Source: Centroscyllium fabricii | Lineage: Eukaryota | Assembly (NCBI GenBank): GCA_051313645.2 | Contig: JBNRSN020000005.1 | Coordinates: 49,910,001-49,974,000, forward strand | Direction of reading: 5' to 3' | Length of the DNA stretch: 64,000 nucleotides | Shown here: in pieces, positions 1 through 22,347 of the stretch | How positions within the stretch are numbered: the stretch's first letter is position 1 | Layout of the letters: every line of letters begins with the position of its first letter | The notes under the pieces: model-generated | What the model was told of the DNA's origin: nothing | The model's database searches: none | Seen by the model: the letters and a program-made list of their open reading frames with translations, nothing else | Position numbers and translations under genes: made by a program

Positions 1-400
1 AATGGCAGCGGCAGCTGCGAAAACGCCGTCGGACCGAAAATGCTACTTCTGCGGCCAGGGACAGCACCCGCGAGCGAAATGCCCTGCGAGGACCGCGACC
101 TGTGAGAGATGTGGCAAGAGAGGACACTACGCCAGGGCCTGCAAATCGGCTCCAACGCCCAGCTCCAGACACAACAGCGTGGCCTGTGAGAGTTCCAACG
201 TCATCCCATGGCCTAAGGTAAGCTGCTGTTGCAGCGCGACCCAGCAGCGGTCCGGGGGTAGATCACAGGCGCCCCGTCTCCCACCCCTGTACGGCAGAGG
301 CCGGCCGCGCACACGGCACGAGCACTGCCACGCCAGAGACGGCCGCGGCCGGCCATGGGCGACCCCCCAACGCCGACACCTCGCCCGGCGCGGTCCGCTG

Positions 401-735
401 CGTGCGAATCACGGGCGCCGCCACCTCGGCCACCGCGGTCCACCACGTGCGAACCACGGGCACCGCCATCTCGTCCACCGTGGCCCGCCACGTGCGAACC
501 ACGGGCGCCGCCATCTTGTCTTCAGCGGCCAGCCATGTGCGACTCCCCGGCGCCGCCATCTTGTCTTCAGCGGCCAGCCATGTGCAACTCCCCGGCGCCG
601 CCATCTTGTGACCCCCGGCGCCGCCATCTTGTCTTCAACGGCCAGCCATGTGCGACCCTCCGGTGCCGCCATCTTGTCCACCGCGGTCGGCCGCGTGCGA
701 ACCACGGGCGCCGCCATCTTGTGCACGGCCCCAGC
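401..735 (+). repeat. 45-bp tandem array in the gag-protease linker of copy A, with GCCGCCATCTTG units
   Basis: Motif recurs at about 416, 461, 506, 551, 596, 619, 664 and 709; the first two are degenerate and one unit is shortened. Confidence 0.9.
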
Positions 736-3308
736 TAGCGGAGGGCCCCCACACACACACACACTTCGGCCTCAGCCATCATCGACCAGGCTAGACCGCA
801 CACCCTATCAAATTCCATGATGAGGATTAAAGTTAACGGTCACATCACAAACTGCCTGTTCGACACCGGAAGCACAGAGAGCTTCATTCACCCCGACACA
901 GTGCGGCGCTACGCACTGCGGACCCTGCCCATGCACTACCAAATCTCCCTTGCTTCAAAGTCCCACACGGCGGACGTCACCGGCTACTGCTCCGTCACGC
1001 TCATGGTCAGGGACTGCGTGTACCGTAATTTTAAACTGTACATCCTCCAGCAGTTGTGCGCCCCAGTCTTACTGGGACTGGATTTCCAGTGCCACCTGAA
1101 GAGCGTGACAATGGAGTTCGGCGGGACCCTGGCCCCCCTCACCGTCAGTAGCCGGGACAATCCCTTCCTAAAGCGGAGCCCGACTTGCGGCCTATCCACC
1201 CTGAAAGTCGACCCCCCCTCACTGTTCGCCAACCTCAACCCCAACTGCAAACCTATTGCTACCAAGAGTCGGCGTTACAGTGCGGGGGACCGGGCATTTA
1301 TCAGGTCGGAAGTCGGGCGTATGCTGCAGGAGGGGATAATTGAGGCCAGCACCAGCCCCTGGCGGGCCCAGGTTGTAGTGGTTAAGACTGGCGAGAAACT
1401 GCGGATGGTGATCGATTACAGCCAGACTATTAAGCGCTACACCGGGCTCGACGCCTACCCCCTCCCCGTATCTCGGACATGGTTAACAAGATCGCCCATA
1501 ACAAGGTCTTTTCAACAATCGACCTTAAGTCGGCGTATCACCAACTCCCGATCCGGAAAGCCAATCGCCAGTACACCGCCTTCGAGGCGATCGGTCGGAT
1601 CTACCACTTCCTCCGGGTCCCCTTCGGCGTGACCAACGGAGTGTCGGTGATCCAAAGGGAGATGGACCGTATGGTTGACCAGAACGGGTTGCAGGCCACC
1701 TTCCCCTACCTGGACATCGTGACCATCTGCGGCCATGACCAGCAGGACCACGATGCCAACCTGGCCAAATTTCTCCACACGGCGAAACGGCTCGATCTCA
1801 CTTACAATAAAGACAAGTGCATCTTTAGTACAGATCGGCTCGCCATCCTCGGATACGTGGTGGAAAACGGGGTCCTCGGCCCCGACCCACAGCGTATGCG
1901 CCCCTTACAGGAACTGCCCCTACCTCACAACCCCAAAGCCCTGAGGAGATGTCTGGGATTTTTCTCCTATTACGCGCAATGGGTTCCCCAGTTCGCGGAT
2001 AAGGCCAGACCGCTCCTCAAGGCTGCTGTCTTCCCCCTCTCGGTAGAAGCCCAAACGGCGTTCGCCCTGATTAAGGAAGATATTATCAAGGTGACCATGC
2101 ATGCCGTTGATGAGTCCATCCCTTTCCAGGTGGAGAGTGACGCTTCAGACTTTGCCCTTGCCACCACCCTGAATCAGGCAGGCAGGCCCGTAGCGTTTTT
2201 CTCCCGCACCCTACAGGGACCCGAAACTCGCCACTCTGCAGTGGAAAAGGAGGCCCAGGCCATCGTGGAGGCCGTGCGCTACTGGCGTCATTACCTGGCC
2301 GGTAAGCGTTTTACCCTGCTCACCGACCAACGGTCGGTCGCGTTTATGTTTAACAATAAAAAAAAAGGGGAAAATCAAGAATGATAAGATCCTGCGGTGG
2401 CGGATTGAACACTCGACTTACGAGTACGACATTCTTTACCGACCAGGCAAACTCAACGAACCCCCGGACGCACTGTCCAGGGGAACGTGCGCCAGTGCCC
2501 AGCTAGACCGGCTGAAGGAACTCCACGATCGCTTCTGCCACCCGGGTATCACCAGACTTGCCCATTTCGTTAAATCCCGTAGCCTCCCCTACTCCATCAC
2601 GGAGATCAAGGCTATGACCCGAGAGTGCCCTGTTTGCGCCGAGTGCAAACCCCAATTTTACAGGCCAGACACGGCGCACCTCATCAAGGCCACCCGACCC
2701 TTTGAACGTCTGAGCGTGGACTTCAAAGGCCCCCTCCCCTCCACCGACCGCAACTCGAACTTCCTCACGGTCGTGGATGAGTTCTCCCGCTTCCCCTTCG
2801 CTTTCCCCTGCCCAGATATGATGAGCGCAACGATGATAAGACACTTCACCACGCTGTTCGCCATTTTCGGTCTCCCCAGCTACATCCATAGCAACCGGGG
2901 GTCGTCGTTCATGAGCGACGAACTGCGTCAGTTTCTGCTTCAGAAAGGGGTTGCCTCAAGCAGAACGACCAGTTACAATCCCCGGGGGAACGGCCAGGTA
3001 GAAAGGGAAAATGGGATAATCTGGAAGGCGGTCAGCCTGGCCCTGAGGTCCAGAGGCCTTCCAGTGTCCCGTTGGCAGGTAGTCCTCCCAGACGCGCTTC
3101 ACTCCATCCGCTCTCTGCTGTGTACGGCTACAAACGCCACACCTCATGATTTATTATTTTCCTTCCCCAGGAAGTCGACTTCGGGGACGGCGCTTCCACC
3201 GTGGCTCACGATGCCGGGGCCGGTCTTACTTAGGAAACATGTCCGCGGCCATAAGACCGACCCCTGGTGGAAAAGGTGCAGCTGCTGCATGCCAACCCGC
3301 AGTATGCC

Positions 3309-3584
3309 TGACGTATCGTCAATTAACTCAATAAAGCCAAAGACGAGTAGTGACCTTAACTACAGGCTTTTATTGACTTACTTAGGAGCTATACTCCGAA
3401 CGAACAACAGGTACAGAATGAACGGGTCCGGTCAGTCCTCACCTATAAAGGGCCTCACCTGGGGGAGGAGTTAGAGGTGTGGCTGACCTGGCCCCACGAC
3501 AGTGTCGCAACATCTTACTATGTACAGTGGCAATATTGGCACCAATATTACAGTGGTAATTAATACATATATATGGTTACCACA
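3309..3584 (-). mobile_element. Solo LTR of a related Gypsy subfamily, nested antisense in the integrase of copy A
   Basis: Reverse complement reads TGTGGTAACC...CGATACGTCA, like the copy C LTR. 5-bp TSD ATGCC (3304-3308 / 3585-3589). Removing it restores ANPQYAYVQFPDGREDTV. Confidence 0.95.
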
Positions 3585-3990
3585 ATGCCTACGTGCAGTT
3601 CCCAGACGGGCGCGAGGACACAGTTTCCATCAGGGACCTAGCGCCCGCCGGGAGCACTAGAGCAGAGCCCCTGGTCGAGCCTCAGCCCGACCAGCCACCG
3701 CCTACAGAACACTGGCCGGCACACCAACCACCAGCTACCGAATACTGGCCTACACACACCGGGGCCCCCGACACTATCGGCTGATGACCCAGGACCGGAC
3801 GCCAAACCGCAGGCACGGTTGCCGGAGGACCCGACCCCGTTACCACAACCGGCACCAGCGCCGCTACCGGAACCCCGGCGGTCTTCACGGCAGACTCGAC
3901 CACCGGAGAGACTCATTGAGAACTGCTGATATGGACACATAAAACATTTTTTTTGCACTGATCGGCTCTGTTCCATTTAGAAGGGGTGAA

Positions 3991-4269
3991 TGTGGTAATC
4001 ATATTACCATTGTATAGTTGGGTCACACCACAGACCAGTACGTATAGTGGCTGGAGGTATTGTATATAGTATTGTATAGAACACTGTTGTAAGGTCAGGT
4101 CGGCCACACCTCTAACTCCTCCCCGCAGGTGAGGGCTTTATAGGTGAGGTCTGCCCTGCCCCCATTCATTCTGTACTCGATGTTCGACTGGAGACTAGCT
4201 CCATCTTTAAGTGATTAAAAGCCTATAGTTAAGGTAACTACTCGTCTTTGCATTATTGACGATACATCA
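3991..4269 (+). repeat. 3' LTR of copy A (279 bp)
   Basis: Follows the PPT; TGTGGTAATC...GATACATCA. TTTATAGG TATA-like box, TCATTCT Inr-like motif, ATTAAA. 3' half is homologous to the copy C LTR. Confidence 0.9.
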
Positions 4270-5195
4270 CTCCTCTCCCCCAGGACCATCCCCAGTGCTG
4301 CTCCTCTCCCCCAGGGCCATCCCCAGTGCTGCTCCTCTCCCCCAGGACCATCCCCAGTGCTGCTCCTCTCCCCCAGGACCATCCCCAGTGCTGATCCTCT
4401 CCCCAGGACCATCCCCAGTGCTGCTCCTCTCCCCAGGACCATCTCCAGTGCTTCTCCTCTCCCCAGGACCATCCCCAGTGCTGCACCTCTCCCCCAGGAC
4501 CATCCCCAGTGCTGCTCCTCTCCCCAGGACCATCCCCAGTGCTGCTCCTCTCCCCAGGACCATCCCCAGTGCTGCTCCTCTCCCCAGGACCATCCCCAGT
4601 GCTTCTCCTCTCCCCAGGACCATCCCCAGTGCTGCTCCTCTCCCCAGGACCATACCCAGTGCTGCTCTCCTCCCCAGGACCATCCCCAGTGCTGCTCCTC
4701 TCCCCAGGACCATCCCCAGTGCTTCTCCTCTCCCCAGGACCATCCCCAGTGCTGCTCCTCTCCCCAGGACCATCCCCAATGCTGCTCCTCTCCCCAGGAC
4801 CATCCCCAGTGCTGCTCCTCTCCCCAGGACCATCCCCAGTGCTGCTCCTCTCCCCCAGGACCATCCCCAGTGCTGCTCCTCTCCCCAGGACCATCCCCAG
4901 TGCTGCTCCTCTCCCCAGGACCATCCCAAGTGCGGCTTCTCTCCTCAAAGGAGCACCTGTGCAGATTCTCTTCCCAGCTGAGTTCCAGTGCTCTTTGCAG
5001 TCAGTCTTTGATGCTGCTCCCCTCACTAAACGACTCCCTCTTTCTGCTCCTTTCACTGAGTCAGTCCTCCATGTTATTCTTTTCCTCGAGTGAGTCTCCA
5101 GAATTGCTCCTCTCCCTGAGTCAGTCCCTGATGTTGCTCCTCTCTCCAGGTGAGTTCCTGATGCTGCTTTTCTCCCTGAGTCAGGCCCTGATGCA
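4270..5195. repeat. 30-31 bp minisatellite (CCCCAGGACCATCCCCAGTGCTGCTCCTCT), about 22 copies to ~4930, then a degenerate tail
   Basis: Units visible directly; explains the repetitive ORFs in both directions. Confidence 0.95.
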
Positions 5196-5721: not shown

Positions 5722-5970
5722 TGTAACCGTCAATAACGTCTTCGGAGTCGAATAGTTGGTTATAATAATCAGGCTTTTATTAACTTCGTTGGAGATACAC
5801 AACCGAGCTGACTGTCCCCAGAATGGCGCGGGGGATGGGGACAGTCCTTTATGTACCTCCTCCGGCGGGGGAGGAGTCATGGGCGGTGCCAGGTATCATA
5901 CAGGTGTTACATGGTATTACAGTGCTATACAGGTGTTACATGGTATTACAGTGATATACAGTTTATCACA
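5722..5970 (-). repeat. 3' LTR of copy B
   Basis: Matches 10154-10402. Contains a ~29-bp U3 tandem duplication and an 11-bp inverted repeat (5810-5820 / 5836-5846). Confidence 0.97.
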
Positions 5971-6099
5971 TTCACCCCTTCTTTAAAAACTAAAGTACGG
6001 TGGGGTGAACAACTCGCGGGGGGGTACAAAAAGGGAAAAGAAAAACAACTAATTACACTGTGCTAAATAACGAAATATATACAATTAACGTTCTTTTGA

Positions 6100-9000
6100 C
6101 TATATGTTCAGTCTTTCAGGCGGTTTCGTCGTCCGCGCTGATCTTCGTAGCGCTGGTGGTGCCTGTGGTGTTCGTTGTCGTTGAGTGGCTCGCCGTGCTG
6201 GCAGTGCCTGTGGTGTTCGTTGTCGTGGGGTGGCTGGTTGCGTCGTTTGTTCCTTTTCTGCTGGTTGGCCGGTGGTGGTTATGTCACTTCCGGGTGGCGG
6301 TGATGCCCTTATTTCGACAGCAGGTGGCGCGCTCTCTCTTTCGTCCTCTGGCTCTGGGGGGAGCGCATTGTGGATCCAGGCTTGGGGCTGGGTCGTGCTG
6401 CGCGCAGGTGCCTTGTGGACATACTGGGGTACTGGGCCCACGTGGCGGAGCTCGTACTTCGGCTTCGGTGGCTCGGGGGGGGTCACTGGGGGTTTTGGGA
6501 GCTCGGGCTGCCTGGCTGGGCTGGTTTTGGGGATCCCTGCTGGGGCTAGGTCCTTTATGGACACGGTGTCCTCCCTCCCGTTGGGGTACGCTATGTACGC
6601 GTACTGGGGATTGGCGTGCAGGAGGTGGACCCGTTCGACTAGGGGGTCTGCTTTGTGTCCCCTCACATGCTTCCGCAGCAGAACCGGTCCCGGAGATAGC
6701 AGCCACGATGGTAGCGAGGTCCCGGAAGCTGACTTCCTGGGGAAGGCAAAAAGTCTTTCGTGAGGGGTGGTGTTAGTGGCAGTACACAATAGGGACCGGA
6801 TAGAGTGGAGTGCTTCAGGGAGAACGTCCTGCCATCGGGTGACTGGGAGGTCTTTTGACTTTAGGGCTAACTGGATGGCCTTCCAAACCGTGGCGTTCTC
6901 TCTCTCTACCTGCCCGTTCCCCCGGGGGTTGTAGCTGGTGGTCCTGCTGGTTGCAATACCTTTCGCCAGCAGGTACTGACGCAGCTCGTCGCTCATAAAA
7001 GAGGCCCCCCGGTCACTGTGGATATAGTTCGGGTACCCGAACAGGGAGAAGATGCTACTGAGGGCTTTGATAACAGTGGCGGAGGTCATGTCCTGGCAGG
7101 GGATGGCGAAAGGGAAACGGGAGTACTCATCTATAACGTTGAGGAAATAGACGTTCCTGTTGGCTGAGGGAAGGGGCCCTTTAAAATCGACACTGAGTCG
7201 TTCAAAGGGGCGAGTGGCCTTGATTAGGTGCGCCCGGTCTGGCCGGTAGAAGTGCGGCTTGCACTCCGCGCAGACCTGGCAGTTGCTAGTCATGGTCTTG
7301 ACTTCTTCGATGGAGTAGGGGAGGTTGCGGGACTTCACGAAGTGAACCAACCTAGTGACCCCCGGGTGGCAGAGGTCGTTGTGAAGGGTTAGGAGACGGT
7401 CAGCCTGTGCGCTGGCACAGGTACCGCGGGATAGGGCATCTGGGGGTTCGTTAAATTTCCCGGGCCGATACAAAATATCATAATTGAACGCTGATAGTTC
7501 AATTCTCCACCTTAATATTTTGTCGTTCTTAATCTTACCCCGCTCTTTGTTGTTGAACATAAAAGCGACTGAGCGTTGGTCAGTCAACAGGGTAAAACGC
7601 TTTCCGGCCAGGTAGTGCTTCCAGTGCCGCACTGCTTCAACAATTGCTTGGGCCTCCTTTTCGATTGAGGAATGGCGGGTTTCTGGGCCTTGGAGGGTAC
7701 GTGAAAAGAAGGCCACGGGTCTGCCCGCCTGGTTAAGGGTGGCGGCCAGTGCAAAGTCAGATGCATCACTTTCCACTTGGAATGGGACGGACTCATCCAC
7801 AGCGTGCATCGTGGCTTTGGCTATGTCCTTTTTTATTCCGCAGAATGCCGAGTTGGCTTCTGCAGAAAGTGGGAAAGAGGTTGATTTTAATAGTGGGCGA
7901 GCTTTGTCCGCATAATTGGGGACCCACTGGGCATAATAAGCAAAAAATCCCAAAATCCGTTTAAGAGATTTGGGGGAGTGGGGGAGGGGAAGCTCCATGA
8001 GGGGGCGCATGCGGTCCGGGTCTGGACCGATGACTCCATTTTCCACCACGTTGCCGAGGATGGCGAGGCGCCCGGTGTTAAACACACATTTCTCCTTATT
8101 ATACGTGAGGTTCAGGGTTTTGGCGGTGTGGAGAAATTTTTGGAGATTGGCGTCATGGTCCTGCTGGTCATGGCCGCAGATGGTCACATTATCGAGGTAC
8201 GGGAAGGTCGCTCGCAGCCTGTACCGATCGACCATTCGGTCCATCTCCCTTTGGAAGACCGAGACCCCGTTCGTGACTCCGAACGGCACCCTAAGGAAGT
8301 GGTAGAGGCGGCCGTCAGCCTCGAAAGCAGTATAGAGACGGTCCTGTGAGCGGATGGGGAGCTGGTGATAAGCAGATTTTAAATCGATGGTAGAGAACAC
8401 TTTAAATTGGGCGATTTGGTTTACCATGTCCGCTATCCGGGGGAGGGGGTAGGCATCTAGTTGGGTGAACCGGTTTATGGTCTGGCTGTAATCCACTACC
8501 ATCCTATTCTTTTCCCCGGTTTTCACCACGACTACCTGTGCTCTCCAGGGGCTGTTGCTAGCCTCTATGACCCCTTCTTTTAGGAGGCGCTGCACCTCAG
8601 ATTTTATAAATGCCCTGTCCCCAGCACTGTAGCGCCTACTCTTGGTGGCGACGGGCTTACAGTCTGGGGTGAGGTTAGCAAAAAGGGATGGAGGGGTAAC
8701 CTTAAGGGTTGAGAGACCGCAGGTAGTATACTGGGGGTTCCGCTTTGAGTCGCGGTTTGTGACCGTGAGGGGAGGGAGGGGTCCACCGAAAGCCATCGTA
8801 ACGCTCTGAAGGTGGCACTGGAAATCCAGTCCCAGGAGTAGGGGGGCGCAGAGCTGCGGCAGCACGTAAAAACTAAACTTGTTAAAGATAGCCCCCTTTA
8901 CGTTTAGCGTTACACTACAGCGCCCGGTGACATCAGCGGATTCCGATTTTGACGCCATAGATATTCTCTGGCGCGCAGGGATTACTTTAAGGGAGAGGCG

Positions 9001-10134
9001 CTTAACAGTATTCTGATGTACAAAACTTACTGTGCTCCCGCTGTCGAACAGGCACACCACCTCTTCACCGTTAACTTCCACCGGCATCATTGATCTCCCC
9101 AGTGGCTGGATTGTCTTCTGATCTAGGCTCATAGATGCTAGTACTGGGTCCTCCCCAAAATCTTGATCCGGAGAGTAGTTATCTCGGTCTGGATAGTAGT
9201 GATTTTGATCCGGGGAGTAGTCCTCCAGGTCAGTTTCCTGGGATGGCTGCCTCCATGTGCTCTGCTGTTGGGTGGGGGATGGGTGCTGCTGCAGCCTTGA
9301 GCTTGAGTGCTGCTGGTTGGGGGATGGGCGAGGCCGATTTTGCAGCTCCCTTGTTCCACAGGCAGCACTGTCCAGTCTTGGTTTAACATATGGGCCTTTG
9401 CAGACCTTTGCATAGTGCCCCTTTTTGTCGCACTTGGAGCAGATTGCTTCTCTGGCGGGGCAGCTACGTCTTTGATGCTGTGGTTGTCCACAGAAGTAAC
9501 ATTTCGCTTTAGCGTGGGCCGCTGTGAGAAGTTCCTCTGACGGTCTCTGCCCCCGCACTGTCCAAGATTGCGGGGCTGGGCCCGTATAGTTAGTAGAATA
9601 CGATGATAAATCTGTAGAGGCGCTGTCTAGCGCGTGTCCCAAATCGACAGTGGCCTGTAAGTCCTGGCCATTTTGTTCTAATAGTCTTTGCCTAGCATAG
9701 TCCGATTTTAGGCCTGTTACATAGGCATCCCTGATGAGACTCTCCATATGTACTAGGGCCGTTTGTGCTCTGCAGTCACAGTCCCGTGCCAGGGTTCTGA
9801 GGGCTCTTAGGAACTGCACACTTGATTCGTTGTCCTGCTGTTTTCGGGTGGCCAGTATGTGTCTCGCGTGGACTCTGTTTGGCGCCCGATTGTATTCCCC
9901 GTCGAGGGTCCTGAGGGCTTCGTTAAATGATGAGGCGTCCACGATCATCGAGTATACTTGCGGGCCCACCCGGGCGTGGAGGAGCCGTCGTTTTTGCTCC
10001 TCGGTCATTATGTCCGTTGCGTTGGCTCTAATGTATCCTTCCAATACATTTCGCCAGTGTGAGAAGGCATTGGATGCTCCAGGAGATCGGGGGTCAACCT
10101 CGAACACTGATGGTTTCAACATTGCAGTATCCAT
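6100..10134 (-). CDS. Gag-Pol polyprotein (1344 aa): Gag with 2 CCHC knuckles, aspartic protease, RT, RNase H, integrase
   Basis: CYFCGQPQHQRRSC and CSKCDKKGHYAKVC; LFDSGS; IDLKSAYHQ...PFG...YLDN; VESDASD; H-H-C-C (HNDLCH...CQVC); D-D-E (SVDFKG, HSDRG, VERENA). No chromodomain and no env seen. Confidence 0.97.
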   Translation of the reverse strand: MDTAMLKPSVFEVDPRSPGASNAFSHWRNVLEGYIRANATDIMTEEQKRRLLHARVGPQVYSMIVDASSFNEALRTLDGEYNRAPNRVHARHILATRKQQDNESSVQFLRALRTLARDCDCRAQTALVHMESLIRDAYVTGLKSDYARQRLLEQNGQDLQATVDLGHALDSASTDLSSYSTNYTGPAPQSWTVRGQRPSEELLTAAHAKAKCYFCGQPQHQRRSCPAREAICSKCDKKGHYAKVCKGPYVKPRLDSAACGTRELQNRPRPSPNQQHSSSRLQQHPSPTQQQSTWRQPSQETDLEDYSPDQNHYYPDRDNYSPDQDFGEDPVLASMSLDQKTIQPLGRSMMPVEVNGEEVVCLFDSGSTVSFVHQNTVKRLSLKVIPARQRISMASKSESADVTGRCSVTLNVKGAIFNKFSFYVLPQLCAPLLLGLDFQCHLQSVTMAFGGPLPPLTVTNRDSKRNPQYTTCGLSTLKVTPPSLFANLTPDCKPVATKSRRYSAGDRAFIKSEVQRLLKEGVIEASNSPWRAQVVVVKTGEKNRMVVDYSQTINRFTQLDAYPLPRIADMVNQIAQFKVFSTIDLKSAYHQLPIRSQDRLYTAFEADGRLYHFLRVPFGVTNGVSVFQREMDRMVDRYRLRATFPYLDNVTICGHDQQDHDANLQKFLHTAKTLNLTYNKEKCVFNTGRLAILGNVVENGVIGPDPDRMRPLMELPLPHSPKSLKRILGFFAYYAQWVPNYADKARPLLKSTSFPLSAEANSAFCGIKKDIAKATMHAVDESVPFQVESDASDFALAATLNQAGRPVAFFSRTLQGPETRHSSIEKEAQAIVEAVRHWKHYLAGKRFTLLTDQRSVAFMFNNKERGKIKNDKILRWRIELSAFNYDILYRPGKFNEPPDALSRGTCASAQADRLLTLHNDLCHPGVTRLVHFVKSRNLPYSIEEVKTMTSNCQVCAECKPHFYRPDRAHLIKATRPFERLSVDFKGPLPSANRNVYFLNVIDEYSRFPFAIPCQDMTSATVIKALSSIFSLFGYPNYIHSDRGASFMSDELRQYLLAKGIATSRTTSYNPRGNGQVERENATVWKAIQLALKSKDLPVTRWQDVLPEALHSIRSLLCTATNTTPHERLFAFPRKSASGTSLPSWLLSPGPVLLRKHVRGHKADPLVERVHLLHANPQYAYIAYPNGREDTVSIKDLAPAGIPKTSPARQPELPKPPVTPPEPPKPKYELRHVGPVPQYVHKAPARSTTQPQAWIHNALPPEPEDERESAPPAVEIRASPPPGSDITTTGQPAEKEQTTQPATPRQRTPQALPARRATQRQRTPQAPPALRRSARTTKPPERLNI

Positions 10135-10139
10135 TTCAA

Positions 10140-10152
10140 GAAGTTAATAAAA
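10140..10152 (-). promoter_or_regulatory. Non-tRNA PBS-position element of copy B (TTTTATTAACTTC), complementary to LTR 10207-10219
   Basis: 13/13 reverse-complement match to GAAGTTAATAAAA in its own LTR; 1 nt from the LTR end. Function is inferred. Confidence 0.8.
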
Positions 10153-10153
10153 T

Positions 10154-10402
10154 TGTAACCGTCAATAACGTCTTCGGAGTCGAATAGTTGGTTATAATAA
10201 TCAGGCTTTTATTAACTTCGTTGGAGATACACAACCGAGCTGACTGTCCCCAGAATGGCGCGGGGGATGGGGACAGTCCTTTATGTACCTCCTCCGGCGG
10301 GGGAGGAGTCATGGGCGGTGCCAGGTATCATACAGGTGTTACATGGTATTACAGTGCTATACAGGTGTTACATGGTATTACAGTGATATACAGTTTATCA
10401 CA
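10154..10402 (-). repeat. 5' LTR of copy B
   Basis: Matches 5722-5970. Followed (minus strand) by a 19-nt leader and then the ATG. Confidence 0.97.
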
Positions 10403-16632: not shown

Positions 16633-17087
16633 GGAATAGAGTTCTTACAGGAAATGGGGTGGGAGGAAGTGTAGTCCAGGTAGCTGTGGGAGGCTTATAC
16701 TGAATGGATAATTGGACCATGATGTGCAGATATAATCCAGGCCCCATTTGAAATAATACATTCTGTCCTTATATAATATTTGATTTTATATTATTATCAT
16801 TAAAAATAACAAAACATGATGTGGTAACCGTATTACCAGTGTATATAGTAACCGTATTACCAGTGTATATATGGATGTGCTCACCTTTGACATTGTACAT
16901 TGTATGCAAGGCCAGGTCAGCCACACCTCTAACTCCTCCCCTCAGGTGGGAGCATATAGGTGAGGGCTGTCCTGCCCCCGCTCATTCTCGCCTTGAACTC
17001 GACAGGAGACTAGCTCCATTGTAAGTGAATAAAAGCCTGTAGTTTGGGTATCTACTCGTCTTTCGTGCTTGATTGACGATACGTCAA

Positions 17088-17100
17088 TTTTATTCACTTA
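17088..17100 (+). promoter_or_regulatory. Non-tRNA PBS-position element of copy C (TTTTATTCACTTA), complementary to LTR 17022-17034
   Basis: 13/13 reverse-complement match to TAAGTGAATAAAA in its own LTR; 1 nt from the LTR end. Function is inferred. Confidence 0.8.
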
Positions 17101-17110
17101 ATTTTAAAAC

Positions 17111-20100
17111 ATGGAGAGTAACGCAGTGAAACCGGATCGCCTCGACATCAATCCTCAGGCACCCGATGCTGCTAACAACTTCGAACACTGGTTCGGCCTG
17201 GTCGAGGCCTACATGAAGGCCGTGAAGGCTACAAGTGATGAGGATAAACTCCAGGTACTCTCATCACGGATCAGCGGCCGGGTGTACTCCTTTATCCGCG
17301 GCCTCAAGACGTACGGGGAAGCGGTGAAAAAACTAAAGGACTGCTACATGCGCCCGGCCCACTCGGTCTATGCCAGGCATGCTCTGGCGACCAGAAGACA
17401 ACGACTCGGTGAGTCCAACGAACAGTTCTTACTAGCGCTTCAAGCCCTCGCACGGGCCTGCAACTGCCAGCCAAGGACGGCGGAGGAAGAAGCGAACCTC
17501 CTAATCTGGGATGCATATGTAGCTGGACTCCGGTCCAGCCAGGCCCGCCAGCGGCTGCTGGAGCAGGATACACTGTCGCTCGAGTCCGCAATAACTCTTT
17601 CTAATGCGGTGGACGGAGCGCTCCGAAAGCTGGAGGCGCATGGAGACCACGGCCCACACGAAACCCCTGACCCCTGGGCGCCACCGCGACAGGCCGAGAC
17701 CCCCACGATGGCAGCGGCGGCTGCGAAGACACCGGCGTGATACAGATGCTACTTCTGCGGCCAAGAAAAGCACCCGCGGGCGCAGTGCCACGCGAGAAAC
17801 GCGACCTGCGAGCGGTGCACGAAGAAGGGGCACTAAACGAAGGTGTGCAAGTCCAGCCCAGCCTCCACCTCCAGACCCAACAGCGCGGCCTGTGAAAACA
17901 GCGATGCCACTCCATGGCCCAAGGTACGGTGTTGCAGCGCAACCCAGCAGCGGTCAGCCGGGGGTAAATCGCGGGCGCCACAGTCCCCTTTGACTGTACA
18001 GCGGAGGCCGGCCGCGCCCATGGCACAGGCGGCGCCACTCCAAACGCGACCGCGACCGGCCATGTGCGACCCCCCGGCGCCGCCATCTTATCGACAGCGG
18101 CCGGCCATATGCGACCCCCCGGCGCCGCCATCTTGTCCACTGCGGCTAGCCACGTGCGAACCACGGGCGCTGCCATCTTATCCTCAGCGGTCGGCCATGT
18201 GCGAACCATGGGCGCCGCCATCTTGTCCACCGCGGTCGGCCACGTGCGAACCACGGGCGCCGCCATCTTATCCACAGCAGTCGGCCACGTGCGAACCACG
18301 GGCGCCGCCATCTTGTCCACAGCAGCCGGACTCGAGCGCATCGCCAGCGCCGCCATCTTATGAGCGGCCATCTTGCCAACTGCCCCGGCCGGGGCCCCAG
18401 CTAGCGGAGGGCCCCCACTCACACACATACACCTCGGCCTCAGCCACTGTCGATTAGGCTAGGCCGCACACCTTGTCCAACTCCATGATGGGGATTAAAG
18501 TGGACGGGCACGTCACTAACTGCCTGTTCGACACCGGTAGCACAGAGAGCTATATACACCCCGACACAGTGCGGCGCTACGCACTGCGGACCCTGCCCAT
18601 GCAATACCAAATCTCCCTTGCCTCAAAGTCCCACACGGCGGATGTCACCGGCTACTGCAGCGTCACGCTCACGATCAGGGACTGCATTTACCGCAATTTT
18701 AAGTTGTACATCCTCCAGCAGTTGTGCGCCCCAGTCTTACTGGGACTGGATTTCCAGTGCCACCTGAAGAGCGTGACGATGGATTTCGGTGGAACCCTGG
18801 CCCCCCTCACCGTCAGTAGCCGAGACAATCCCTACTTAAAGCAGAGCTCGACTTGCAGCCTGTCCACATTAAAAGTCGACCCCCCCTCACTGTTCGCCAA
18901 TCTCGACCCCAAATGCAACCCATTGCTACCAAAAGTCGGCATTACAGTGCAGGGGACCGGGCATTTATCAGGTCGGAAGTCGGGCGTATGCTGCAAGAGG
19001 GGATCATTGAGGCCAGCACCAGCCCTTGGCGGGACCAGGACGTAGTGGTTAAGACGGGCGGCAAACTGCGCATGGTCATCGACTATAGCCAGACGATTAA
19101 CCGCAACACCGGGCTCGACGCCTACCCCCTCCCCTGCATCTCGGATATGGTAAACCAGATCGCCCATTACAAGGTCTTTTCCACAATCGACCTCAAGTTG
19201 GCGTATGACCAACTCCCCATCCGGAAATCCGACCGCCAGCACACCGCCTTCAAGGCGAACGGCCGGCTCTACCACTTCCTCCGGGTCTCCTTCGGCGTGA
19301 CCAATGGAGTGTCGGTATTCCAGAGGGAGATGAACCGTATGGTTGACTAGAATGGGTTGCAGGCCACCTTCCCCTACCTGGACAACGTGACCATCTGCGG
19401 CCATGACCAGCAGGACCACGATGCCAACCTCGCCAAATTCCTGCACATGGCGAAACGGCTGGATCTCACGTACAATGAGGACAAGTGTGTCTTTAGTGCG
19501 GATCGGCTCGCTATCCTCGGATACGTGGTGGAAAACGGGGTCCTCGGCCCCGACCCACAGCGTATGCGCCCCTTACAAGAGCTGCCCTTACCTCACAACC
19601 CCAAAGCCCTGAGGAGATGTCTAGGGTTCTTTTCTTATTACGCGCAATGGGTCCCCCAGTACACGGATAAGGCCAGACCTCTCCTCAAGGCCGATGTCTT
19701 CCCCCTCTCGGAAGAAGCCCAAACGGCATTCGCTCGCATTAAGGAAGACATCATCAAGGCGACCATGCCCACCGTTGATGAGTCCATCCATTTCCAGGTG
19801 GAGAGTGACGCTTCGGACTTCGCCCTTGCCGCCACCCTGAATCAGGCAGGCAGGCCCGTAGCGTTTTTCTCCCGGACCCTACAGGGACCCGAAACTCGCC
19901 ACTCAGCAGGGAAAAAGGAGGCCCAGGCCATCGTGGAGGCAGTGCGCTACTGGCATCATTACCTGGCCGGTAAGCGTTTTACCCTGCTCACCGACCAACG
20001 GTCGGTGGCGTTTATGTTTAATAATAAACAACGGGGTAAGATCAAGAATGATAAGATCCTGCGGTGGCGGATCGAGCTTTTGACTTACGAGTACGACATT

Positions 20101-21285
20101 CTTTACCGTCCAGGCAAGCTCAACGAACCCCCGGACGCACTGTCCAGGGGAACGTGCACCAGCGCCCAGCTTGACCGGCTGAAGGCCCTCCACGATCGCC
20201 TCTGCCACCCGGGTGTCACCAGACTCGCCCACTTCGTCAAATCCCGTAGCCTCCCCTACTCCATCACGGAGATAAAGGCTATGACCAAAGAGTGCCCTGT
20301 CTGTGCCAAGTGCAAACCCCAATTTTACAGGCCAGACACGGCGCACATCATCAAAGCCACCCGCCCCTTTGGACGCCTGAGCGTGGACTTCAAAGGCCCC
20401 CTCTCCTCCACTGACCGCAACTCGTATTTCCTCACGGTCATAGATGAGTTCTCACGCTTCCCCTTCCCCTGCCCAGACATGACGAGCGCAACAGTGATCA
20501 AACACTTCACCACGCTGTTCGCCATTTTCGGTCTCCCCAGCTACATCCATAGCGACCGGGGGTTGTCGTTCATGAGCGACGAACTGCGTCAGTTTCTGCT
20601 TCAGAAAGTGGCTGCCTTAAGCAGAACGACCAGTTACAACCCCCGGGGGAACGGCCAGGTAGAAAGGGAGAACGGGACCATCTTGAAGGTGGTCAACCTG
20701 GGCCTGAAGTCCAGAGGCCTTCCTGTCTCCCGTTGGCAGGAGCTCCTCCCAGACGCGCTCCATGCAATCTGCTCTCTGTTGTGTACCGCTACTAATTCAA
20801 CACCTCACGACCTGTTATTTTCCTTCCCCAGGAAGTCGACTTCGGGGACAGCACTCCCGCTGTGGCTCACAGCGCAGGGGCCTGTATTGCTTAGGAAACA
20901 CGTCCGCGGCCACAAGACCGACCCCCTGGTGGAACGAGTGCATCTGCTCCATGCCAACCAGCAGTATGCTTACGTGACATTCCCGGACGGGCGCGAGGAC
21001 ACAGTCTCGATCAGGGACCTGGCGCCCGCCGGGAGCACTAGGGCAGAACCCCCGGTCGAGCCTCAGCCCGCCCAGCCACCACCCACCGAATACTGGCCTA
21101 CATACATACACACACCGGGGCCCTCAACACCACCGATCAACGACCCGGGATCAGACACCGCACCGCCGGCACCGTTGGCGGAGAGCCCGATCCTGGCCCT
21201 GCAACCGGCACCACCACCGTTACCGGCACCCCGGCGGTCCTCGAGGCAGACGCGACCGCCAGAGAGACTAATAGCGCAGTGTTGA
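17111..21285 (+). pseudogene. Disrupted gag-pol of copy C
   Basis: Premature stops at about 17738, 17834, 18455 and 19348, and a frameshift near 18918. Retains LFDTGS, YLDN, VESDASD and integrase motifs. Confidence 0.92.
18060..18380 (+). repeat. 45-bp tandem array in the gag-protease linker of copy C
   Basis: CGCCGCCATCTT(A/G) at 18078, 18123, 18168 (variant), 18213, 18258, 18303 and 18348; exact 45-bp period. Confidence 0.92.
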
Positions 21286-22347
21286 TCTTCTCTCGTTCAC
21301 CCCGCCGGACTTGTTTTTAAAGAAGGGGTGAATGTGGTAACCGTATTACCAGTGTATATAGTAACCGTATTACCAGTGTATATATGGATGTGCTCACCTT
21401 TGACACTGTACATTGTATGCAAGGCCAGGTCAGCCACACCTCTAACTCCTCCCCTCAGGTGGGAGCATATCGGTGAGGGCTGCCCTGCCCCCGCTCATTC
21501 TCGCCTTGAATTTGACAGGAAACTAGCTCCATTGTAAGTGAATAAAAGCCTGTAGTTTGGGTAACTACTCGTCTTTCGTGCTTGATTGACGATACGTCAC
21601 ATGATCATTTGGGAAACATGGAAGTCGAGTTGGTTGCAGCATTGTTTTTTTTTCCACAGTACAGGCTGAAAAGCTGGGAGACACAAAACTGAGGCACTGC
21701 AATGCTGCCACTAGCAGGAGAGTGTAATTACAGCATAATAAGTTTGCAGAGGCAGTTTCTATTCTATATTTGGACATGGGAATTTATCATCGAAAAGGCT
21801 GACATAAAACCGTGACAAAAATATCACAAGAGGAATTAGGTTCTGCAGACAGGAAGTGTGTGCTGACGTAAGATTTTTAATATGTATAGATTCGAGCCCG
21901 CTGACTCAGTGATTTGTCAGGGAGCATGGTAAACCCTGTTGATAATGAACACACTAGCCCGAACAATTAAAGAGGTACTGCACTTGTATGCATTACCACA
22001 TGATCTCAGTGAATGCAAAGGGATAAATCTGTACGGTGATTGGTGCCTCCCACTTCTACCTGCTTCGTTGTGTATTGTCCTTCAAAAATGCAGACATTTT
22101 ATACAGTGATAGTAATGTTGTGATGCACAGGACTGGAAAAAACCATTTCCGTCATCTGCCTGGCCTTAGAGTTCGAAAACAGAATACACAGTACACTATC
22201 TACATGCCTCAATTGATTTTCTCACTAAATTCCAAGCCAACTCTCTCAAAATTACTGATGTTATCAACCTTGATTGGTTCCCTGGTCAGTTGACTCCACA
22301 CATTCACCACCCCGTGTGAAATGCCCATTCACCTTCCTTCTCACACA

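Follow-up and report, generated by a model that had tools for sequence, protein, structure and literature searches.

How does an LTR retrotransposon start reverse transcription when its leader holds no canonical tRNA primer-binding site? The question is raised by copy C, one of three elements (copies A, B, and C) with Ty3/Gypsy features, i.e., TG...CA LTRs, a polypurine tract, and a target-site duplication, found in the window, the whole 64,000-nt stretch of Centroscyllium fabricii DNA analyzed here (Table 1). No TGG site follows the LTR end in any of the three copies; a tRNA scan detected no tRNA genes in the 64-kb window, and the leader varies with the LTR, with no meaningful Rfam match. The results presented below suggest that reverse transcription is probably primed by the element's own RNA.

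The initial annotation had described a 13/13 pairing between the LTR of copy C and the leader that follows it. The two arms are indeed exact reverse complements with Watson-Crick pairs throughout and unpaired flanks, separated by a 53-nt spacer, and the right arm begins one base (A17087) past the LTR-end CA at 17086. Between copies B and C, motif positions 1 and 6 differ, and both arms are matched in each copy (10219-10207 with 10152-10140 in copy B). The register of the right arm, CA-A-TTT, is common to copies A, B, and C, and the genomic junctions described below were selected by the pattern CA-A-TTTA. The LTR pair of copy C (267 bp) has 7 differences, and the gag ATG lies only about 10 nt downstream of the duplex. 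A transcription start about 38 nt upstream of the duplex had also been proposed; TATAGG is found at 16955, a TATA-like box precedes the initiator also in copies A and B and in a second family, and the reverse copies described below, which halt at the initiator A, support this start independently.

Table 1. Features of the three elements and of the solo LTR in the window, with those of the proposed priming region of copy C.
Feature	Position	Strand	Remarks
Copy A	1..4269	+	3' LTR 3991-4269; target-site duplication CTCCT
Solo LTR, TAAGTCAATAAAA family	3309..3584	-	Nested in copy A; 5-bp duplication GGCAT
Copy B	5722..10402	-	Identical 249-bp LTRs; one 1347-codon frame; target-site duplication GTCGG
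RT active site YLDN	copy B 6100-10143, residue 649	-	Also in copy C, 19351-21285
5' LTR of copy C	16820..17086	+	TG...CA, 267 bp; target-site duplication CATGA
TATA-like box	16955..16960	+	29 nt upstream of initiator A
Initiator TCATTCT	16982..16988	+	A16984, probable transcription start, 38 nt upstream of duplex; reverse copies stop at homologous A
Putative self-primer, first 51 nt of RNA	16984..17034	+	Predicted cut after A17034
LTR arm of duplex	17022..17034	+	Contains poly(A) hexamer AATAAA at 17028-17033; arm ends AATAAA plus one A
Rest of R to putative poly(A) site (about 17049-17050)	17035..17050	+	By analogy with polyadenylated copy L338 (n = 1)
U5-end hairpin TGACG-ATA-CGTCA	17074..17086	+	Predicted for copy C; not recovered across 24 variants
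Primer-binding-site position	17088..17100	+	Reverse complement of LTR arm, one A past LTR end, no TGG
Interrupted gag-pol of copy C	17111..21285	+	Gag, protease, RT with YLDN, RNase H, integrase; several frames
Polypurine tract of copy C	21319..21332	+	
3' LTR of copy C	21333..21599	+	Motif copy 21535-21547 without leader partner downstream

The 141-nt leader of copy C folds only modestly better than its shuffled versions (z of -1.65, with 12 of 200 shuffles equally good), so the argument for the duplex is one of covariation, not of energy. A hairpin that had been suggested at the end of U5 appears in the predicted fold of copy C and is missing from the alignment-wide structure, which was computed from 24 sequences (the 18 perfect-pairing variants introduced below and 6 others) and whose pair counts are descriptive only. 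A short GGAG...CTCC hairpin just upstream of the duplex arm (17008-17018 and homologous LTR positions) does emerge from the alignment fold, supported there by a few compensatory changes. Elsewhere in the elements, 45-bp tandem repeats occur within gag (copy A, 242-774; copy C, 17949-18383), and copy A sits in a 30-bp minisatellite (window 4250-4977) that continues upstream of its 5' LTR.

Two predictions had been made for sequences beyond copy C. For copy A, whose 5' LTR and leader lie upstream of the window (L031:5102-5394), the DNA that was read there pairs 13/13 as anticipated, while the predicted letters are off at one position (actual arms, TAAGTTATTAAAA/TTTTAATAACTTA), because the 5' LTR of copy A has a T where its 3' LTR has a G. 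For the solo-LTR family, the predicted partner was present at 7,125 exact genomic matches, compared to 0 for the reversed-pattern control.

We then examined this pairing across the 7.2-Gb genome with a junction pattern consisting of the LTR end, the leader, and the gag start, which is blind to the LTR arm. At least 135,287 5' junctions matched the pattern, compared to 2 for the control, and covariation was analyzed in the first 70 of the 100 matches listed among them. In this sample, 49 of 70 junctions paired 13/13, in 18 variants, whereas in 10,000 shuffles of the leaders among loci the number of such junctions averaged 4.9 and never exceeded 13. Pairing per position ranged from 0.90 to 1.0 across the 13 positions and was 0.26 at the 14th, and the distance from arm to site was 50-62 nt in 69 of the 70 junctions. 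Each of the 21 imperfect combinations was a singleton, while the recurring variants were strictly Watson-Crick, and the LTR arm in the variants of this genome contained AATAAA or ATTAAA, switching between those two only. A further 12,676 matches carried other variants; those listed come from families with different LTR ends. A host RNA would presumably be unable to track so many variants, and half-tRNA priming could not be expected to follow 18 of them. An 11-nt primer of Tf1 size, starting at the AG of the motif, was considered and rejected, since both pairing and covariation extend to positions 12 and 13, counted from the end.

Not all of this covariation need reflect two selected mutations, as part of it may have been produced by primer copying. 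In a test of rare variants at position 4, for which the initial pattern was swamped by other families and a restricted version was used, 26 double changes were found compared to 14.8 expected at an assumed leader rate, and 10 of the 26 were compensated, about the chance level. This compensation test is uninformative to mildly negative: it did not reveal an excess of compensated changes of the sort to which primer-templated repair might lead.

Covariation was also found in distant relatives. Among 80 metagenome loci, 42 include the gag start; 36 of these have a CA-A-TYTA junction, with 21 distinct leaders, 16 of which pair over 12-18 bp with their own LTR (5 of the 21 lack a long match), as opposed to 2 of 420 cross-pairs that reach that length. 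Each of these long duplexes has AAA at its end, with G or A as the next base and C after that. In 6 of the 16 long-duplex families no canonical poly(A) hexamer is present, yet the AAA end and the CA-A-TTT register are kept; what stays constant is thus the register and the end point, and the hexamer less so. Sharks and rays supply the best named RT-RH homologues (76-86% identity), and those of a sea anemone, a damselfly, and nematodes come next (60-64%). Altogether, the selected duplex between LTR and primer site that had been claimed is supported by covariation, both in this genome and among distant relatives.

If a self-RNA primer were copied past its 13 paired bases, a reverse copy of the upstream LTR would be expected at the primer site. 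A search for such copies, set as a test beforehand, revealed 773 places where the leader runs on as the reverse complement of the LTR, compared to 0 for the control; end points were determined in the first 90 of the 100 listed among them. In 16 of the 90 loci, the reverse copy stops at the initiator A or a single base past it; curation leaves at least 9 of these junctions as independent, significantly more than the ~1.5 expected from the downstream density (P of 2.5e-5). Another ~20 copies stop short of the initiator A, at +28 to +1, and ~5 stop in the 110 nt beyond the start, while 47 reach the LTR 5' end or beyond, 12 of these with 5-bp duplications and 9 continuing through the polypurine tract into 3' internal sequence. 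By curation, 12 automatic events at 0/-1 were reduced to 9, with L260 and L269 removed, as they end earlier, and L234 merged with its group; 5 of 11 automatic ends between -2 and -60 proved to be indels in copies that run on. One gag junction that recurs in 7 of the 16 start-ending loci was counted once. Genome-wide, a non-LTR base directly follows the initiator copy in 100 matches, and 506, some of them double-counted, continue. A second family with a different LTR end gave 45 matches. Of the 30 that were examined, 5, with 3 junction types, stop at 0 to -2, 7 stop before that point, and 17 extend to -85 or farther, which leaves a single end (at -19) in the interval from -3 to -80.

The fossil primer site that remains in the start-ending class is a 51- to 54-nt reverse copy of the LTR, from which the sequence jumps to internal sites of the element, mostly at short microhomologies; one locus, L182, resumes at the normal leader. 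Both LTRs were recovered in 14 of 20 loci that had been picked by hand from this class and extracted at greater length; in 12 of these, the 5-bp target-site duplication is perfect. These fossils are therefore products of retrotransposition, not of later chromosomal rearrangements. The base that follows the copy varies and is mostly explained by microhomology, and a cap-derived extra C at the copy ends was accordingly rejected.

Three further observations were made at these loci. The recurrent junction (L177, L187, L222, L236, L248, L271, and L234, with many of the genome-wide matches) joins a start-ending copy to gag at a point ~160 nt inside the internal region. It occurs in two or more LTR subfamilies and represents either a repeated slip at a 7-nt microhomology or a mobilized non-autonomous subfamily with a 53-nt primer site. 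L171, L181, L190, and L256 are among the small palindromic insertions in which an LTR and one A precede an inverted U3-R; these have U3 at both ends and carry 5-bp duplications. An origin of the palindromic insertions (12 of the 47 long reverse copies) in the pairing of plus-strand strong-stop DNAs is possible. A polyadenylated copy of the element 3' end (L338:1050-1540), the only such match to the pattern used, carries its tail 15 nt past the motif and has no U5.

Considering these data together, we think it probable that the element primes itself in a Tf1-like manner with a ~51-nt fragment from the 5' end of its RNA that ends on the poly(A) signal; the cleavage and priming steps are those that we infer. 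According to this model, transcription would begin at the initiator A, 29 nt past the TATA-like box, and RNA bases +39 to +51 would pair with the primer site, a pairing read in the DNA and predicted for the RNA. The RNase H of the element's RT may then cut after the A run, by analogy with Tf1, releasing the ~51-nt primer, from which minus-strand DNA would initiate opposite the single spacer A, and the ~15 nt of R between the cut and the poly(A) site would carry the first strand transfer. Usually the primer would be trimmed or copied only to about 13 nt; longer copying would send the second transfer astray by microhomology, or permit annealing to another plus-sense LTR copy, and so leave the fossils described above. 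The duplex of the 5' LTR likely also hides the poly(A) signal there, since the partner follows the 5' LTR only, and the 3' copy would stay usable. Two aspects of the data lie outside this scheme. The 13-nt limit on copying of the 51-nt primer is explained by none of the results, and the 47 of 90 copies that reach the LTR 5' end need a template other than the 51-nt primer and fit a primer from the 3' copy equally well. In addition, start-ending copies could have arisen if plus-strand DNA that ends in the 13-nt site annealed wrongly to another RNA molecule, at its 5' R.

Since the motif is present in both R copies, the one in the 3' R might instead pair with the primer site of a circularized RNA, in which case the cut after the A run would make the 3' end of the genomic RNA the primer, and the ~50 nt upstream of the motif would serve strand transfer. 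This arrangement would give the first transfer a homology longer than ~15 nt, and it predicts reverse copies that run past U3 and the polypurine tract to 3' internal regions, as do 9 of the 90. However, the 5' copy, just 50-62 nt from the site in 69 of 70 junctions, would be the first to pair as the RNA is made. An extra jump is also needed to explain both the excess of start ends and the ~20 ends that fall slightly short of them, and no precedent was found in the accessible text of the literature; we consider priming from the 3' copy unlikely. An inverted repeat might also act at the level of DNA, by fold-back of the plus strand or by chromosomal template switching, and the reverse copies would then be uninformative on an RNA primer. 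A plus-strand DNA template fits the 47 of 90 reverse copies that end at or beyond the LTR 5' end, 12 of them with 5-bp duplications, but it leaves unexplained why ends are in excess at the initiator, why the pairing is conserved among distant relatives, and what primes the minus strand, and the target-site duplications exclude a post-insertion chromosomal origin for those loci. An exclusively DNA-level action is thus highly improbable.

A different possibility is that the duplex merely hides the 5' poly(A) signal or regulates gag translation, with priming by another primer or at another site. The precedent is HIV-1, which is primed by tRNA-Lys3 and has a polyA hairpin within R-U5, whereas the arm of the present elements pairs outside the LTR, with the primer site itself. 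Several features suit such a role: AATAAA or ATTAAA is part of the arm in this genome's variants, the signal was used in the one polyadenylated copy, and the gag ATG is found about 10 nt beyond the duplex. It accounts poorly for the 6 of 16 distant long-duplex families that have neither hexamer and still keep the AAA end and the register, for a partner placed exactly at the primer-site position of an element with no tRNA site, for recurring variants that are strictly Watson-Crick, and for integrated reverse copies that begin at the same register. A purely regulatory duplex therefore seems improbable to us, and self-priming by the 5' fragment is the reading carried forward below.

Self-priming has been described for Tf1, which has no tRNA site and whose primer is freed by an RNase H cut (PMC7175516, PMC4600332), and Tf1 cDNA often retains a copy of the primer site (PMC11042837); it has also been predicted for Tj1, the Tf1/sushi group, Tcn1, and TAR (PMC4600332, PMC6317226, PMC5341516, PMC3601003). 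As far as the accessible portions of these papers describe them, Tf1/Tf2 of Schizosaccharomyces pombe, Tj1, and the Tf1/sushi group have in common with the present elements the lack of a tRNA site, a primer site complementary to their own R, and the order PR-RT-RH-IN. In the same portions, the Tf1-type primer consists of the 5'-terminal ~11 bases of the RNA, whereas the arm here is internal (+39 to +51), 38 nt past the probable start, and the putative primer is ~51 nt. Unlike in Tf1/sushi chromoviruses, the primer would end on the poly(A) signal, no chromodomain was detected, and the RT is mostly YxDN; a conserved U5-IR-like stem of the Tf1 type is predicted here in copy C and is absent from the 24-sequence alignment fold. 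The plant lineages Tcn1 (Gypsy) and TAR/Houba (Copia) have primer sites predicted from sequence to be complementary to the LTR (PMC6317226); these belong to other clades and hosts, and the available text describes no overlap with a poly(A) signal and no fossil primer copies for them.

The domain order of the encoded proteins is Gag-PR-RT-RH-IN, and the RT is closest to that of Ty3 among solved structures. No chromodomain was detected in the full frame of copy B (E of 0.001) or in its C-terminal 218 aa together with 5 homologues (E up to 5), and a protein atlas search returned unnamed Gag clusters only. The group should not be filed under Tf1/sushi. In size and layout the elements presumably resemble the Cigr-1 clade, which we take to have one frame of ~1200 aa and short LTRs, a likeness by description and not by alignment to a reference sequence. 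The Cigr-1 clade of Ty3/Gypsy has been reported in tunicates and molluscs, according to the accessible part of the source (PMC6238403).

In the RT active site, YxDN was found in 91 of 120 homologues and YxDD in 26, with 3 not read. In Ty1, according to the portion of the report available, the RT mutation D211N keeps slow polymerase activity and abolishes transposition unless RNase H suppressors arise (PMC2148107). The same active-site aspartate is replaced by asparagine here, as the natural majority state of a widespread group, and, given the identical LTRs of copy B, recent movement would be possible with YLDN, in trans at the least.

Demonstrated for Tf1 of fission yeast, self-priming has otherwise been predicted for a few lineages; distinctive here are the internal arm, the longer primer, and the overlap with the poly(A) signal. 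The literature covered, to which older subscription papers and the repeat databases Repbase and GyDB do not belong, yielded no description of pairing between LTR arm and primer site, or of YxDN, in this group. Tentatively, and with slightly less than even confidence in the whole, we propose that a widespread animal Gypsy clade, apart from chromoviruses, has a second design of self-priming, in which a capped primer of ~51 nt would have the poly(A) signal as its 3' end, a single duplex would both block premature 5' polyadenylation and start reverse transcription, the RT carries the YxDN that is lethal in Ty1, and hundreds of integrated slips would record both ends of the primer. If this is true, no tRNA is used to prime either one of the most abundant elements of a vertebrate genome (more than 135,000 5' junctions) or the relatives of this element in invertebrates, and a different geometry ties 3'-end processing to priming. 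The priming mode and the start site would be readable from assemblies alone, and integrated reverse copies would offer a general, sequence-only test for self-priming that is applicable to other LTR elements without a primer site. The natural YxDN, in turn, bears on the role of the third RT aspartate.
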